A stretch of DNA of 64,000 nucleotides from Podarcis gaigeae (lineage: Eukaryota), in assembly GCA_964106915.2 (NCBI GenBank), contig OZ066919.1; one strand, given 5' to 3'. Position numbers and translations under genes: made by a program. The notes beneath the pieces were generated by a model, which was not told where the DNA came from, made no database searches, and worked only from the letters and a program-made list of their open reading frames with translations. This document shows, piece after piece, positions 4,507 to 47,058 of the stretch (position 1 is its first letter; every line of letters begins with the position of its first letter).

Positions 4507-4992
<486 letters not shown>

Positions 4993-5510: not shown

Positions 5511-6443
5511 AGCTGTTTGACTGATGGAACCCTAAGAGTGCACATCAATGGTTCCTCGTTATTCTTGGAAAATAATGACAAGTGGGGTGCCATAGGGTCT
5601 GTCCTGGGCCTGGTGTTGTGACTTGAATGAAGGAATAGATGGGATGCTCATCAAATTGCAGGTGCCACCAGAGTGTTGTACGTGTGCCCCTTAGGGTACA
5701 TGAAAGGGATTCAAAGGGTGGGCAGCATAATTTTTTTGTTTTACTTCATCATAGGTTTTTTTAGCTGCATAAAACAATTCAAATATAAAATAATATTATT
5801 AAAACTACCCCCAAATTACATACGCCTGAGAAGGTGGTGCAGTGGTAAGACAAAACTCAAAAGGCATATACGATTATTGTACCTTTCGGAAACGCTGCCT
5901 CAGAATATAGAATCAGCATTCAAAATGGCTTTAACAGGTTGGAGAACTGGGCCAAAACTATCAAAATGCATTTCAGTAGGGACAAATGTTTAAGGAGGAT
6001 ATCAAAAAGCTGGAATCTGTGCAGAGGAGGGCAACCAAGATTTATCAATGGTCTGGAAACCAAGCCTTAAGATAAACAGTTGAGGGAGTTGGGTATGTTT
6101 AGCCTTGAGAAGAGAAGACTGAGAGGAGCTAGGATAGCCATCTTCAGATATCTGAAGGGCTGTCACAATATGGAACAAGCTTGTTTTCTGCTGCTCTGGA
6201 AGGTAGAATCTGAACCAAAAGATAAAAATAGCAAGAAAGGAGATTCTAAATAATCATTAGGATGACTTTTCTGACAGTAAGATCTGTTTGAGATTGGAAT
6301 GGACTGCTTCAGAAGGTGGTGGACTCTCCTTCCTTGGTGAGGAATAATCTGAGTTTGGGTGGCTATCTGGCAGAGACGCTTTAGCTGCCTTTCGCTAGAT
6401 GACCCTTGTAGACCTCTCCCAACTCTAGAATTCTGTGATTCTA
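5511..6443 (+). mobile_element. Degenerate CR1 LINE 3' fragment (interrupted at about 5663-5935)
   Basis: RT-like pieces (GGGGTGCCATAGGGTCTGTCCTGGG; CAGAGGAGGGCAACCAAGAT) and CR1 tail TTCTGTGATTCTA. Confidence 0.75.
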
Positions 6444-6524
6444 AAAGTTCTAGTTTCTTTAAATATAACTGAGTCCTCGTAAAATTGTCCAACTATAACC
6501 TGTAAAATTGTCCAACTATAACAT

Positions 6525-6690
6525 ATATTCAGGTAGGTAGCCGTGTTCATCTGACGCAGTCGAAATAAATAAAAATAAAAAATTGTCCAGTAGCGGCCTT
6601 AGAGACCAACTAAGTTTGTTCTGAGTATAAGCTGAGTATAATTTATTTCTACAACATATATGCCTAAGTAGATTTGATACGGCAACTATG
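6525..6690. mobile_element. Penelope-like element terminal fragment
   Basis: GGTAGCCGTGTT...CCAGTAGC..CTTAGAGACCAACTAAGTTTGTTC; reverse complement of the 40885-41017 fragment. Confidence 0.6.
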
Positions 6691-7009
6691 CACACATCTG
6701 TCTCATTCATATATAAAGTGGAGGTGGGGTTAATATATACTATGTTGTAATACTGTTGGGGGAAAACAACTTAAAGATTAAAGCAGCAGAATCCAACATT
6801 TGATGTGATCTGGAAATTAGATAAGATTGCACAGGGTGCAGCAAGGCAAGCATTTCGCTCCCCATTTGTGCTTTTTGTGTAATAGTAAACAATCCTCTCC
6901 TGCTCAATCTCTCTCCACCCATCCCCCCAAAGTTATGGTTAAGAGATGTCTGCATATGACTATGTATATTGGCTAAGTTTTTGGCTTAGAGCTGAGGCAC
7001 TGTTAGTGG

Positions 7010-8165
7010 GTGGTTCCCTAGACCAGATGGATGGGAGGTTGCCTGGTCTTGATGAGGTTACACTCCCTCTGAAGGAGTAGGTCTGTAGCTTGGGGCTACT
7101 CCTGGGTCATTTGCTGTTGGTTGAGGCTCAGGTGGCCTCGGTGGTGTAGACCACCTTCCATCAGCTTCGCCTGGTGGCCCAGCTGCACCCCTATCTGGAC
7201 ATGGATAGCCCAACTTTAGTTGTCTGTGCTCTGGGAACCTCTAGGCTAGATTATTCAAACTGATGCATTGTACATGGGGCTGCTTCTGAAGGCACTTTGG
7301 GAACTTCAGCTGGTGCAGAATTCAGTGGCTAGGGTGATCATCAGGACAAGATAGCTTGAGCATATAATGTATATCTTGACCCATCTACACTGGCTGCCAG
7401 TTAGTTTCTGGGCCCAATTCAAAGTGCTGGTTTTGACCTATAAAGCCTTGAATGGATCAGGAATGCAATAATCTCAAGGACCACCTCTCCTGATACCATA
7501 TTGGCCTGAATATAAGCCTCACTTTTCCCCCAAATTCCAACTGTTAAAAGTTAAGGTGCGGCTTAAATTTGCAGCCTTACAAAAATGGGCTTTGACGATG
7601 CTGAAACAGACATACGGTAAAACGGAAGAAAAAAAATACGTTTTTTTGCTGATTTGTGAGCTCAAGACTGCTCATTTGCCATTTGCAGGTGTGAGTGCCT
7701 ACGGAATTGTAGCAGTTGAATAGCAATTTGCCATTTGAGCAATTGTATGAGCTTGCAAGATCAAAGGCTTAAATGGGCTTGGAGTTAGAATTCTACCAAC
7801 CGCAGCAATTTTAAGCCTGTAACCCAATTTTAAGGGAGTGGCTTATATTTGGCTATTGTCTTTCTCTCCCTCTCTCTCTCTCTCTCTCCCTCCCTCTCCC
7901 TCTCCCCCCCCCCCCGAATTTTAAAGGTGTGGCTTATTTGAGGGTGTGGCCTATATTCGGGCCAATACGGTATATACCAACCTGGACTCTGCGAACATCA
8001 TCTAAAGCCCTTCTTTGTGTGCCCCTTCCATGAGTATTCTATGGCCTTTTTAATGTTTCCTTGTTCTTGGTTTATTATGTAATTTGTATTTTTATGTTGT
8101 GAACCACCCTGTGATCTTTGGATGAAGGGTGGTATACAGATAAACTAACTAATCAATCAATCAAT
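7010..8165 (+). mobile_element. L2-type LINE 3' fragment interrupted by a DNA transposon
   Basis: Motifs for SRLDY, LQLVQN and LHWLPV, CCCAATTCAAAGTGCTGG; short tandem tail (AATC)n. Confidence 0.75.
7496..7970. mobile_element. Non-autonomous pogo/Tigger-like DNA transposon
   Basis: TIRs CCATATTGGCCTGAATATAAGCC / GGCCTATATTCGGGCCAATACGG, flanked by TA. Confidence 0.8.
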
Positions 8166-8343
8166 CTTTATTACGGTGCAGAGACCCAACAAATCATTAC
8201 AAATCAATACACAATTCATACAGCCTACCTCCAAGTTAATCAAGCATTTTGTTTAGAATATAGGGCTCATTTGTTCTTGGACAAATGCTAGAACATTAGC
8301 AGTAGCAAAGTTTTTATCGGTGGTTGCAAGAACTAAATAATAA

Positions 8344-8541
<198 letters not shown>

Positions 8542-38689: not shown

Positions 38690-39920
38690 TACACGCGGCC
38701 TTCATAGATGTATTTTTTTGGGGGGGGGAGGGGCGGAGGCGTGCGCTATGCCCACCGCAAATGCCCGTGCCTGGAAGTTGGGAAGAGCGAGAGGAAGGCA
38801 CCGCCACCACCCCGCGCTACTGAACATGGAGGCTTGTGGAGCGTTCCTCCTCCGAAAGCAACTTGGGAGCGGGCTCTGCAGAAGCAGCAGCAGCAGCCAC
38901 AAAGCCGAGTCCTCGCGGCCGCCTGCAGCTCAGCGCCCACGCCGGCCTGCTCCACCTCCTTTCTCCGCGCGAGTTAATCTGTAACCCGGCCGGCGCTGCC
39001 CCTCCACTTGGCGCCGGCGGCGGCGAACTTTGCCCGGAGCTCTCCCACCCGCCTCCCTTACCCGTAGCTGGTGAGGACGCTCTTGTTGACCACGACGATG
39101 AGGAAGGAGCTGAAGCCGTAGAAGGCAGCCGCCAGCAGCTTGAGGCAGACGGTGAGGCTGGGCGCCGCCGCCATGCCCGGCTCCTCATCTCCGCGAGCTG
39201 CTGCTGCTGCTGCTGCTTCTGCGGTGGGGGCTTCTCCCTTCACGCCAGAAGCCTGACGTCTGCGCGCGGCCGCCGACATGGTTGCAAGCTGAACGTCAGA
39301 CGGGGCGGAGCGGGACGCGGGCGGCATCGAAGCCAGGAGAGGCTGGGCCCAAGGGGGGCTGCCCGACGGCGTGCAGGGAGGGCGCAGCAGCAGGAGGAGG
39401 AGCGCGCAAAGCCGTGACGCGCCAGGGGCGCAGCGGGGCTCTGTTCCTCAAGCAGCAACGTGCGAGCCCGGCGTGTTGTTCTTCTGAGCGGCAAAGGGGT
39501 CGTTGTCTCCCAGCCCCGAAAGATTAGGCTGCGTCCTCCTGCGCACTTAAGTCGCTCCCCTACCCGGGAAAGGGCGGCGTCGCTTCAGCCAAGCCACCGC
39601 GTCGGAACCAGTTCTAAGACACAGAGCCAGCGAGCCACGCGACAGAATTTCCCCCGAGCGCGCAAAGGGTGCCCTTATTTTTTGCTCCTAGCCACAGTGC
39701 GGGGCTAACGCCACCACGAGAAGCCCAGGTGGGGGCGGCAGGGTAGCAGGGAAACTAAGAGTCTCTTGTCTCCCATCACGTGTTGAGAAGGGATCACGTG
39801 CAGCGCCGCCAACACGCTTGCGAGCCACGTCCGTCGGGGGCGTGAGAAGAGGCCCTTTGCGCAGAAATAGAAGTTCACAGTGCTCCTTCCTGCGCTTTAT
39901 CGCGCCGCGTGGGGGTGGGC
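38690..39920. promoter_or_regulatory. CpG island / SLC35D1 promoter
   Basis: Very GC- and CpG-rich around exon 1; GC box GGGGCGGAG near 39302; CACGTG E-boxes near 39777 and 39795. Confidence 0.9.
39062..39279 (-). CDS. SLC35D1: SLC35D1 exon 1 coding part (UDP-GlcA/UDP-GalNAc transporter)
   Basis: ACCATG start; MSAAARRRQASGVKGEAP...LTVCLKLLAAAFYGFSSFLIVVVNKSVLTSY; donor GTAAGG; the 12 exons sum to 1083 nt in frame. Confidence 0.95.
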
Positions 39921-41330: not shown

Positions 41331-42392
41331 CTACTTTTCATTACCCACAGGTAACAGGTTCTGCATGCTCGGATCCCTATGGGATTCGGAGACATCGAAT
41401 TCTGCTGTTGGTATGCTTATAACTGGAGCGTGTGCAGACCCAGCGCTTTGCTCTTCTGAACATGCGGTCAATTCTGATTTCTGGGGCTCAAGGCTACTAT
41501 TTACTTCTTCCTGAAAGCTCCTTAGTGATAGTGATGACGTTGGCCCAATTAACCTCTCACTGTCTTCTTGGGCTGGGGACTGGACTGAGACTTCCATGTT
41601 GCTTGCCCTGTTTTCATCCAGAAAAGGTTTCTGGTGTGAATTATCCTGGTGCTTCACTTCAGACTTGCTGCTTTCCACTGATACGATTTTAGCACAACTA
41701 TGAGATGAGCATGAACTGCGAGCTGAAGGGACGGAGTTTTGGTGGTTAGCGAGTTTATTTCCAGATCTTGGAATTGGAATTGGCTTTGAGATGGGGATGT
41801 AGTCCACAAAAAGCACTCTATCCTTCTTACGGGGTTCTTCGGGGGAAGCTAACTCCTTCTCAAAAAAATCTGGAAGTTGGGATTTTATTCCTGAAATCAG
41901 ACTTCTAGATGAAATAGTACGGTATATGGCCAGCGTTGGATTCTCTCCACATACCATAAGGCCTTCTTTCTGACGCTGAGGCATGTTTGTTGAAATACTC
42001 CTTTCAGGGACCGTATGTCTGCTGAACGTTTTTGTGACACTTGCACTCATCTTCTGAACAATCTCTTTCTGAGAACTTGTGAAGATATCATCACATGGTG
42101 TTTTCTTCACAGATAAAATCTGAACAGCGATGCGTTTTGGTTTCCCAGACAGGGCTGGCTTTTTCTTCCTCTTTGTAGTTTCATTTGGGGGAGAATTTTG
42201 TTTACTTCTGGTGATTGCAGTAGATTCATTATAGTTATTTCGTAGGACCGGGTTTAGCTGCATGCATATTTCACCACTCCTATTCACACCATAAAATGCT
42301 CCTTCCCCATACATAGAAAGACATGTATTCAATGCATGCTTCTTTACATACCCTTCATTGTGGCAGTAGACAGGAAATGATTCACTTGACTT
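41331..42392 (-). CDS. C1orf141: C1orf141-like terminal coding exon
   Basis: Acceptor AG at 42393-42394; 353-codon open frame starting KSSESFPVYCHNEGYVKK (cf. recalled human EQKDTNPIIFHDTEYV); AATAAA on minus at 41289-41294; syntenic position. Confidence 0.75.
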   Translation of the reverse strand, partial: KSSESFPVYCHNEGYVKKHALNTCLSMYGEGAFYGVNRSGEICMQLNPVLRNNYNESTAITRSKQNSPPNETTKRKKKPALSGKPKRIAVQILSVKKTPCDDIFTSSQKEIVQKMSASVTKTFSRHTVPERSISTNMPQRQKEGLMVCGENPTLAIYRTISSRSLISGIKSQLPDFFEKELASPEEPRKKDRVLFVDYIPISKPIPIPRSGNKLANHQNSVPSARSSCSSHSCAKIVSVESSKSEVKHQDNSHQKPFLDENRASNMEVSVQSPAQEDSERLIGPTSSLSLRSFQEEVNSSLEPQKSELTACSEEQSAGSAHAPVISIPTAEFDVSESHRDPSMQNLLPVGNEK

Positions 42393-44631: not shown

Positions 44632-45674
44632 CTGCATTTAAAAAAAAAAGTGATAGTAATAAGTGGTCACCAAACAATTAAATAAGCAATATTACTGGAT
44701 TCTTCAAAAGTAATGTGTTATCAGCCCAGTCCTGTGGAACACTCTGCCAGTTGAGATTCAGTGAGTGCCTTCTGTGCCCAATTTAAAAAATCTGCTAAAA
44801 ACTTTTCTATTCTGTCAGGCCTATGCAGGCAATTAAGAATACATTCCCACAATGGTTTACTGATGTTTGCTTTTCATTCCTTTTATCTTTTAACTTGTTT
44901 TTTTAAAATAAACTTTTTATGGTTTTATTGTTTGGTTTTGTTTTTATATTGTTGTAAACCACTGTGATATATTTTTTATGATACAGTGGTATATAAATGT
45001 CTGTCTGTATGTATGTATGAATGAATGTATGTGTTCAGATAATGCCTTTTGCAAGAGCACCAGATCAATTATTCACCTGGTATGCTTCAAAGCCAGTAGT
45101 AATACTACTATTAACAACAACATGCTTTTTCAATGTGTCAAGCACCTTGCACATGTTAATCTCAGTCATTCTTGCTACAACTCTAGGTCACTGTCATTGT
45201 CCTCCTATTGCATAGCAGTTCAGCTGCCATGGCTGAGCTGTAATTTAACTTGGGAATCTCCTACATCTACAGCTCTCCCACATTTCATTAAATATATTCT
45301 CATTTTTCCATAGGTTCCGGTGCATCCAATAAACAATGAACATAAAGCAGTTGCCTTGTCTTCTTGTTTGCATCAGAAAAATTGTCGTGAACGCAACTCA
45401 GGGTCTGAGGGAGAAACCACACAGACCAAAGCAAAAGTACCGGTTTTCAGAAATACTTTATTAATTCCATCTATTCAAGTGCTCTCGATTTTATAGCACA
45501 CTCACACATACTCTGCAGGGATATAGCTGCCAAAGACAGCTGCTCTGTCTAATCAGATGGCCAGTTCAACTTTACTGGGTGAGTCTGGAGAAGAAGAAAG
45601 CTGCTCCCTACCTACTTGCTATCCACGCTATGAATAATTGTAAAATATTTTGTCATATTCCCAATTTTACTTGC

Positions 45675-46438
45675 TGTCAGAACTGCCCTAGGTCCCAGCT
45701 CACAAAGGACCAACGCCAGGTCGTTGTTATATATACAAAAGTCTTTATTGAAGTTCAGTTTCCATTTTAAAGCCTTGGCGCGCAGCTCTACGTCTTAAAC
45801 TCTAGACCGCCGAAGCTCCGTCTGAATCTCCTCCCCTTCCACACCAGTTTAAGACTCTAGCCTTGCTCCACCTCCTCCTTAGCTCCTTCCTCCTCTGGGC
45901 CCTCCTGCCCGCTGGGGTCTCAGCCTTTCTGGACTCCTCTGACGCTGATTCCCCGGATTCACTCCCCACCCTCCGGCGGGCTTTAGGACCTGGTTCCCTA
46001 TCCGGGCTACCTGCTGTGCCGCTCGCCTGTACATTTGAACTTGGCGTGCGCACCCAGTCGGCAACCTTCCTTTCGACCGTTCCCTCGCTCCCCGATGGAG
46101 GCGTGGTCAGCCCTAACTCATCTTCTCTCTCTCCTGGAGGAGACGCTGGCCCTGATACCTGGGATTCTTCCCCCCCACTACGCTCTGGTGGGGAAGCTGG
46201 TCCTGACCTCCACCCGCTGCTCTGGGAGTCACCGCTGGCCCCTTGCTCCTGGCGCGTCCCCCCTGGGACCCCCCTTGCCCTGGCCATCGGCGCCCCCCTC
46301 TGGGAATCTTCCGATTCACTGGAATGGCTCATGGTATCTCTCGGGCCACTGTCATCTTCTCCCACGCTGCCCTCAAACTCCTCCCCTTCGCTCTCCATTT
46401 CCTCTCTTCCCTGTGCCTCTACTCCTGAGCCCCTGACA
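45675..46438 (-). mobile_element. Young solo LTR (764 bp, Gypsy/Ty3-like)
   Basis: TGTCAG...CTGACA termini; perfect 5-bp TSD CTTGC (45670-45674, 46439-46443); AATAAA on minus at 45744-45749; CpGs retained. Confidence 0.92.
45802..46398 (-). CDS. Intact 198-aa ORF inside the solo LTR (Ser/Glu/Gly-rich, Arg-rich C-terminus); expression unproven
   Basis: ORF track; Kozak-compatible GAAATGG; frame is open back to the LTR 5' edge. Confidence 0.45.
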   Translation of the reverse strand: MESEGEEFEGSVGEDDSGPRDTMSHSSESEDSQRGAPMARARGVPGGTRQEQGASGDSQSSGWRSGPASPPERSGGEESQVSGPASPPGEREDELGLTTPPSGSEGTVERKVADWVRTPSSNVQASGTAGSPDREPGPKARRRVGSESGESASEESRKAETPAGRRAQRRKELRRRWSKARVLNWCGRGGDSDGASAV

Positions 46439-47058
46439 CTTGCCTTTTTATTTTAGCTACAAAACCCCAAACCTGACCCTGCTGTCCTTCAGTATAGTCC
46501 AACAGACATCAAAAGCCACATAAAATAATATAGTAAAGGTATTCTTGATCCTGATGTCAAACAGATCCCAAAAAATGTGTCCTGTAAGCCTCATAAAAGG
46601 GAGGGGCAAGTATATTGGAGTTTCATATGCCCCATGGATTCCACATTCTTGGGCAAACAGGAGCATTTTTCGTACTCAAGCTGTGGCACTTTGATAGGCT
46701 CTGAACAATTCCATATATGTTAGTAGGAAATAAAAGTGAGATTGCCAAAGTGCTCTTTTGTAAGTATATATTTTATATTTTGTCATAAGTTTTATTTATT
46801 TTCTGACAGAGTATTATTTTCTTGGAATCAAAAGGGAGGAAAAAGACAGCTTAGCTTTCAACATATAATTGAAGGAAATTTATTCTGTAGGGGGACTGAG
46901 ATTTCTATGAACCATGGACTATAAAACAAAGACATGTAAAGACCCACAAATATTATTAGAGAAGGCATAAAAAGAACAAAGTATTTATAGAAAAGTGTTC
47001 TATATTTGTTACATATTAGAACCATAAGGTACAGGATAAAATACAGTCATATGATGAA

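Follow-up and report, generated by a model that had tools for sequence, protein, structure and literature searches.

Why should a solo long terminal repeat (LTR) consist almost entirely of one open reading frame, and what does that frame encode? The window analysed here, a stretch of 64,000 nucleotides from contig OZ066919.1 of the lizard Podarcis gaigeae (assembly GCA_964106915.2), carries such an LTR on its minus strand. The earlier note on this DNA proposed that the LTR encodes a separate accessory protein, left behind as a portable mini-ORF at every solo LTR. Our analysis gives a different answer: the frame is the last 211 codons of pol, which in full-length copies runs through integrase, a chromodomain best read as degenerate, an acidic linker, the polypurine tract (PPT) and all of U3. 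That the frame is a Pol tail under selection we regard as nearly certain. The whole reading, in which this selected tail is a disordered extension of integrase with nuclear-import and chromatin-tethering signals, is probable. The features of the locus, in window coordinates, are the following.

45670..45674, no strand: left copy (CTTGC) of the 5-bp target-site duplication
45675..46438, minus strand: solo LTR of 764 bp, TG...CA, subfamily A, of what looks like a self-priming chromovirus-type Gypsy retrotransposon
46439..46443, no strand: right copy (CTTGC) of the duplication, matching the left copy
45802..46437, minus strand: 211-codon frame plus stop, the C-terminal tail of Pol (integrase) with its upstream part cut off; continuous with integrase, chromodomain and linker in full-length copies
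46396..46398, minus strand: first ATG of the frame (codon 14), without conservation between subfamilies (Thr there in F, F2, G and P0001)
45838..45907, minus strand: approximate span of the basic segment RRAQRRKELRRRWSKARVLNWC, the sole predicted helix of the tail, at low confidence (from charge profile and structure model)
45848..45854, minus strand: TATA-like TCTTAAA box over the V-L-N codons; in A, B and F it precedes the self-primer by approximately 30 bases; putative in function
45813..45823, minus strand: 11-base self-primer, its first base being the predicted transcription start (U3/R border); in full-length copies it is complementary to the sequence following the 5' LTR, and A differs from B/F by compensating changes in the pair
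45744..45749, minus strand: AATAAA, putative polyadenylation signal

The element itself is as first described: 764 bp long, bounded by TG and CA, flanked on both sides by a perfect CTTGC duplication, and with the minus strand as its sense strand. Its closest named proteins come from Podarcis, in agreement with a lizard solo LTR of Gypsy type. Beginning at LTR base 2, at the 5' edge, the sense frame runs without a stop for 211 codons to a TAG at 45802-45804. Counted from the first ATG it has 198 codons, or 597 bp including the stop, which agrees with the length given in the earlier note, and AATAAA likewise lies where that note had placed it. The tail is of low complexity (33 S, 32 G, 27 E and 26 R among 211 residues), with an acidic front and a basic end; the arginine cluster described as terminal is followed by 21 more residues. 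The length of the frame was compared with chance by three shuffle schemes, of 3000 shuffles each. In only 3-4 of 3000 shuffles did the sense strand give an ATG-started ORF of 198 codons or more, so that the refuting case named in the earlier note, 200-codon ORFs at similar frequency in shuffled sequence, does not apply. A stretch of 212 or more codons without a stop, in whichever of the six frames, appeared in 69-108 of 3000. At 59% GC the length alone is only moderately unusual, and it is the family data that decide. The second count is what speaks for a chance open frame in GC-rich DNA, spread by recent amplification, but none of the nine subfamily representatives has a stop in this frame, even where amino-acid identity falls to approximately 50%, which refutes this explanation and leaves it with practically no probability.

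A genome search with the LTR returned 4131 first-look candidates, of which the best 40 scored were 93-100% identical, and the frame was open over at least 207 codons in 21 of 30 fetched copies, the window copy included. Counts of exact LTR-start patterns gave 1064 for subfamily A with its variants C, D and E, 2622 for B, 842 for F, 95 for F2 and 63 for G, the letters being labels of the present analysis. Paired LTRs approximately 5.8 kb apart enclose gag and pol, with the Pfam domains Retrotrans_gag, RVT_1, RT_RNaseH, Integrase_H2C2, rve and SH3_Tf2-1 in this order, that is, the gag-then-pol order of Gypsy elements, and the best PDB match of Pol is the Ty3 Gag-Pol (E=2e-137). The protease has no Pfam match and is visible solely as a DSG motif in the sequence. 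In one region (L097) pol lies in the -1 frame of gag, and a GGGAAAC heptamer was spotted by eye in the gag/pol overlap of A and F; Gag-Pol would be produced through a putative -1 frameshift, to which the observed frame relation points. Between integrase and LTR, no env-like frame was found in full-length copies. Two observations on individual loci may be added. In L100 the pol region is interrupted by a nested Copia-type element (approximately 5800-8350), and a single contig of 29.5 Mb (C32) accounts for 27 of the 40 best matches to the older subfamilies' internal 3' region, a clustering as expected of a non-recombining sex chromosome.

A tRNA primer site is absent, including one of the tRNA-Met type of CRM elements, and a self-priming site is present instead. 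At 30 of 32 listed TGACA-GTAAG sites, some of which are repeated by overlapping loci, a complement of 11-12 bases stands 146-150 bases before the LTR end; the other two are without it. The self-priming partners change in step between A and B/F, and the duplex forms in folds of A and B, the fold of F having failed. According to the available parts of two sources, self-priming is a hallmark of the Tf1/Sushi group (10.1101/2022.12.06.519325, PMC6317226). The element looks like a self-priming chromovirus of Tf1/Sushi type, with at least 4,600 LTRs. From the position of the self-primer, transcription is predicted to start at window position 45823, approximately 30 bases after the TCTTAAA box, which lies inside the ORF, and 21 bases before the end of the frame. 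Almost the whole frame lies upstream of this predicted start, so that the promoter of a solo LTR should not express it. The sequence TTTAAGAC is indeed found at 45792-45799, where the earlier note had seen it, but it sits downstream of 45823, and TCTTAAA is the TATA-like box that is conserved.

The full-length copies show where the frame comes from. The earlier note had left it to such copies whether the ORF starts upstream of the PPT or is reached by splicing, and in them the open frame reaches the LTR from pol, upstream of the PPT. In L097 a single frame of 1526 codons runs from before the protease motif to the LTR stop, and in L100 and L101 1132 and 1216 codons, respectively, are open to the same 3' LTR stop; L098 and L099, which belong to one tandem array, have a frameshift in the G-run of the PPT, so that three of the five regions are continuous. 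Exact PPT-LTR junctions number 1049. In 13 of the first 30, all 501 upstream codons are free of stops, and in all but one of these 13 the frame continues for at least 209 codons into the LTR, which makes 12 unbroken copies in 30 consecutive ones. The junction is often broken in older copies, and in an older set just 2 of 30 loci are unbroken end to end. The distant F clade is built alike, with a frame of 1331 codons and a tail approximately 50% identical, and UniRef entries from Podarcis muralis contain Pol with the tail already attached. The frame stops just inside R. The internal ATG of the window copy is Thr in F, F2, G, one D copy and the Podarcis muralis proteins, and the idea of a portable mini-ORF at every solo LTR is not supported. 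A solo LTR keeps the frame only because U3 remains in place after LTR-LTR recombination, as a fossil rather than a gene.

The same copies bear on the accessory protein. The tail could also, or mainly, be a separate product, made from a subgenomic or spliced RNA, started at an ATG in the PPT (MDVR...) or released by the protease. Nearly all copies do have an in-frame ATG in strong context (GGG ATG G), five bases ahead of the 3' LTR, and a GTAAG resembling a splice donor follows every 5' LTR examined. Contigs from three runs (X1, X3 and X4), aligned to the subfamily B LTR, covered all 30 bins in each run and yielded neither indels nor joints informative on splicing. Nevertheless, the frame runs on from pol, the PPT ATG is absent from solo LTRs, one locus (L040) has GTG in its place and distant families have V or S there at the protein level, while the AAG of GTAAG belongs to the self-priming duplex. 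We consider a separate protein quite unlikely, and the proposal of the earlier note gives way to a frame that is continuous with pol.

Selection on the tail was measured between natural copies of different subfamilies. Its dN/dS is 0.33-0.38 (bootstrap 0.23-0.60) at a dS of approximately 0.5, and 0.33 for the window copy against subfamily B; the values are 0.28-0.29 for the linker, 0.07-0.16 for the chromodomain and 0.08-0.12 for RT/RNase H and integrase. Closer subfamily pairs give 0.38-0.58 for the tail, and the signal is weak for the window copy against C (dN/dS 0.58, codon-position p=0.4). Under a neutral null that keeps the base and CpG class of each change, amino-acid changes fall below expectation in 15 of 15 pairs, which are not independent, with a probability of at most 1/2000 in nine and at most 0.036 in 14, one close pair lying above significance (0.09). 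Net indels within the frame amount to 3, 9 and 63 bases, all in phase, and after the stop to 1, 2 or 4 bases. Between the window copy and F, 104 residues are identical, 52 of them via different codons, and substitutions are distributed over the three codon positions as 51/73/103. In EPGPKARRR nine of nine residues are kept with six different codons, and in SSESEDSQxGAP 11 of 12 with seven; six motif blocks are kept via synonymous codons in this way, the basic block least (9-10 of 22 residues common to F/G). These results show that the tail is conserved as a protein, by purifying selection. To this extent the earlier note was right: the frame fills U3 and persists between subfamilies, with the indel phases and dN/dS of a preserved frame.

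It could still be asked whether the protein matters. Pol might read passively into a purine-rich U3 in which the open frame (for example, a stop near the poly(A) site) or the promoter DNA is selected, with little protein function. The low-complexity composition fits this explanation, as does a tail dN/dS three to four times that of the enzymes. Moreover, many chromoviruses seem to read only a few codons past the PPT: 120 relatives were scanned, and 75 of the 104 that bear a chromodomain end within 30 residues of it. Motif blocks kept via synonymous codons, on the other hand, go beyond what DNA-level constraint or the avoidance of stops would produce by itself, and we judge passive read-through to be unlikely. 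The opposite strand offers another candidate. An antisense frame (45806-46456, plus strand), overlooked in the earlier note, is equally long in the window copy. Its third codon positions coincide with those of the sense frame, so that dN/dS cannot separate the two, and the sense frame might be the shadow of a real antisense gene. Yet stops interrupt the antisense frame in six of the nine representatives (B, C, E, F, G and F2), whereas the sense frame is uninterrupted in all of them and is the only one of the two to join pol; a real antisense gene is highly improbable.

The selected Pol tail is long. Pol continues for approximately 360 residues past the chromodomain, approximately 210 of them in the LTR. 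The chromodomain matches Pfam Chromo with E=0.013 and 15.8 bits, below the cut-off of 25.1, and HP1 weakly (E=0.27-0.68), with the cage W and Y aligned to R and T; the first cage position is presumably N, by HP1 numbering. Related proteins with an intact W carry a Pfam chromodomain. The domain is best read from these alignments as degenerate, with its aromatic cage residues lost. For the tail itself, no Pfam family was found at E up to 0.1 and no relative in the PDB, the best match having E=0.11. An AlphaFold model of chromodomain, linker and tail, made with 11 sequences, has a mean pLDDT of 38 and is poor even over the chromodomain; a helix is predicted over the basic end in a subfamily B homologue (387-410, pLDDT approximately 45-52). 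The tail is predicted to be disordered save for this one helix, mostly from its composition.

A profile-free search of 1.84 billion representatives gave 10 matches, and all the named ones are from Podarcis. Two distant proteins (P0012 and P0013) have an intact chromodomain W, an acidic linker and a glycine-rich PPT-like stretch, followed by shorter tails that end in a basic patch and LLCW; the tails of the distant families would lie in LTRs as well. Eleven of the 104 chromodomain-bearing relatives extend for at least 100 residues past the domain, entries from Vipera and Python among them, and at least one of the eleven is a gene-model fusion. P0012, P0013, P0037 and P0045, from distant chromovirus families and one of them from Vipera, likewise have an acidic-then-basic extension after the chromodomain at their end, and this suggests that the tail arrangement may be wider in squamates.

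The following mechanism is proposed for the tail. Genomic RNA would start at the self-primer in the 5' LTR and end in R of the 3' LTR, so that U3 would be transcribed only at the 3' end of the RNA. Gag-Pol made by -1 frameshifting would carry the tail, which would remain on integrase after processing. Host factors may then bind SSESEDSQxGAP, WxSGPASPPE, RAPSSNV, EPGPKARRR, SASxESR and the basic helix ending in LxWC, and these motifs would act in place of the crippled chromodomain, as is proposed for the LTR-encoded CR motif in plant CRM elements. We favour a tail that is kept on integrase and bears import and tethering motifs on account of the tail features, the lost cage and the precedents of CRM and Ty5. 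We suggest only tentatively that the tail serves mainly to select targets; import, particle assembly or stability may well be its chief role instead.

Comparison with known systems helps to define what is particular to the lizard element. HIV nef and MMTV sag are U3-overlapping ORFs as well, but they are separate genes with their own start; coding in U3 is common to them and the lizard element, whose frame is the end of pol, without a conserved start of its own. The targeting domain of Ty5 lies outside the LTR. In the available part of the source it is a phosphorylated integrase domain that binds Sir4 and steers the element to telomere-proximal silent chromatin (PMC4700185); Ty5 differs in being a Copia-type element, and that part describes integration into silent chromatin near telomeres and not into the repeat arrays. 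The element resembles the V-clade of the Tf1/Sushi group (Sushi-ichi, Amn-san) in Gypsy order, SH3 and, in what is best read as a degenerate form, chromodomain after integrase, self-priming, a -1 relation of gag and pol and a CCHC-like Gag motif, as these features are defined in the accessible portions of two papers (10.1101/2022.12.06.519325, PMC6317226), and it is by these features that the element is placed there. In contrast to that group, the lizard Pol goes approximately 360 residues past the chromodomain and the cage residues are lost; its U3 is purine-rich, whereas fish Sushi U3 is T-rich in the excerpt at hand (PMC3601003).

The arrangement of the tail has its closest parallel in plants. 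The view that a U3-overlapping ORF is not a standard feature of Gypsy LTRs proves too strong, since in CRM group A and in some Bingo chromoviruses (Bingo1-4 and Bingo7 of beet) the pol frame also enters the 3' LTR; in the accessible parts of the CRM papers the LTR portion in CRM group A encodes the CR motif, a putative targeting domain that replaces the chromodomain (PMC3059260, PMC3605345). The lizard pol frame likewise extends into the 3' LTR. As far as those parts go, CRM elements differ in belonging to plants, in tRNA-Met priming and in their centromeric location, whereas the lizard element keeps a degenerate chromodomain upstream of the PPT and has subfamilies biased to telomere repeats. 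The resemblance, compared by arrangement, is likely a convergence. The arrangement is thus known in plants, and the lizard case is a further variant of it. A vertebrate pol running into the LTR was not found in our literature search; Repbase, Dfam and Butler et al. 2001 were beyond this search and may record the frame.

The subfamilies also differ in where their copies lie. Two patterns detected 56 LTR-like junctions within telomere repeats, divided almost evenly between the orientations (29 and 27). They represent 54 distinct contexts, and after four that were not LTR starts had been dropped there remained 27 for F, 8 for F2, 11 for G, 1 G-like, 2 for B and 1 degenerate case for A. The share of LTR starts in telomere repeats is therefore 17% for G, 8% for F2 and 3.2% for F, against 0.08% for B and 0.09% for A; the window's own subfamily has no telomere bias (1 degenerate case in 1064). 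In the F clade 46 of 1000 LTR starts lie in (TTAGGG)n, against 3 of 3686 in the others (Fisher p=6e-28, with copies treated as independent). The assembly has 18,860 matching repeat sites, from which 0.01 would be expected by chance for F; the arrays are probably assembled incompletely, so that the excess over chance, though not the contrast between F and B, is inflated. One further B copy in a degenerate array was missed by the exact pattern. Most F-clade copies are dispersed.

Telomeric solo LTRs have the duplication and telomere repeats on both sides, in both orientations, and in a tree of 20 telomeric and 30 dispersed F LTRs the telomeric ones interleave with the dispersed. Flanking duplications, orientations and tree together point to mostly independent telomeric insertions, although at least one pair (L268 and L270) shares its flank and is a local duplicate. 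All telomeric junctions, save one degenerate case, use a CTAAC/GTTAG duplication. This phase was considered as a special signal and rejected: A/T stands at -3 and +3 around the 5-bp duplication at 46 of 46 dispersed A, B and F sites, and CTAAC/GTTAG is the only telomeric phase with A/T at these positions, which amounts to ordinary integrase action, not sequence recognition. Sequences of HxLxP type are TRF2-docking motifs. Docking through such a sequence in the linker of F was likewise discarded, as G and F2, with the stronger bias, are without the motif there. Retention near chromosome ends cannot be separated from insertion preference in the telomere excess, and the bias is not assignable to the tail, because F, F2 and G are set apart from A and B by their integrase core, chromodomain and linker too. 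Among the telomeric insertions (L132, L134, L135, L166-L219) several ends have repeated insertions split by short telomere runs. In L134 (1585-1662) the terminal telomere array joins the interior of an F element just upstream of the PPT, as if a broken element had been capped by telomerase.

Chromosome ends are rich in this family also outside the arrays. On contig C1, 32 of 80 PPT-LTR junctions are found in the last 0.7 Mb, and on C2 the first 0.47 Mb contains 17; telomere arrays are present at both of these ends. Within the terminal 210 kb of C1 there are 21 B LTR starts, most of them in non-telomeric DNA, against 0.4 expected from the genome mean. A dense B zone on C1 (138.14-138.85 Mb; L166, L280-L299) has as its inner border a degenerate telomere array with a B insertion, and the end of C1 may have grown outward from an older telomere.

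Among elements known from telomere repeats, SART, MoTeR and Zepp are non-LTR retrotransposons. According to the available part of one source, SART/TRAS, Tx1-1_ACar of the anole, MoTeR and Zepp insert in telomeric repeats, which includes one lizard example, and TRAS and Tx1-1_ACar are non-LTR elements (PMC10088271). The present family differs from the SART/TRAS group as an LTR element that inserts in both orientations with a 5-bp duplication and has most of its copies dispersed. A vertebrate LTR element in telomere repeats was not found in our literature search.

The host surroundings of the solo LTR were also noted. A 353-codon host frame without a Pfam match (41331-42392, minus strand) lies 3.3 kb downstream on the strand of the LTR; we take 39058-39447 (minus strand) to be a nucleotide-sugar-transporter-like first exon, and 4507-4878 (plus strand) is an ELM2-domain host exon. 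The LTR promoter or poly(A) signal could affect the gene of the 353-codon frame.

For the family, these results mean that U3 does double duty, as a promoter and as approximately 210 codons of selected protein. Thousands of solo LTRs carry the fossil frame, which gene predictors call hypothetical proteins, as with P0009 and P0014. However the tail is read, the telomere bias of the sister clade stands; it is the less expected of the two results and brings the targeting idea within reach of a test. It is conceivable, though on balance doubtful, that in lacertid chromoviruses the cage was lost and an LTR-encoded tail took over targeting, in parallel to the plant CR motif, and that changes in the tail retarget the element, as in F, F2 and G towards (TTAGGG)n arrays, building and remodelling subtelomeres. 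If the tail steers integration, the subfamilies would amount to a natural series in which a common enzyme core is combined with various tails and with targets that differ measurably (0.08% against 3-17% telomeric), and the choice of sites by vertebrate chromoviruses would become testable.
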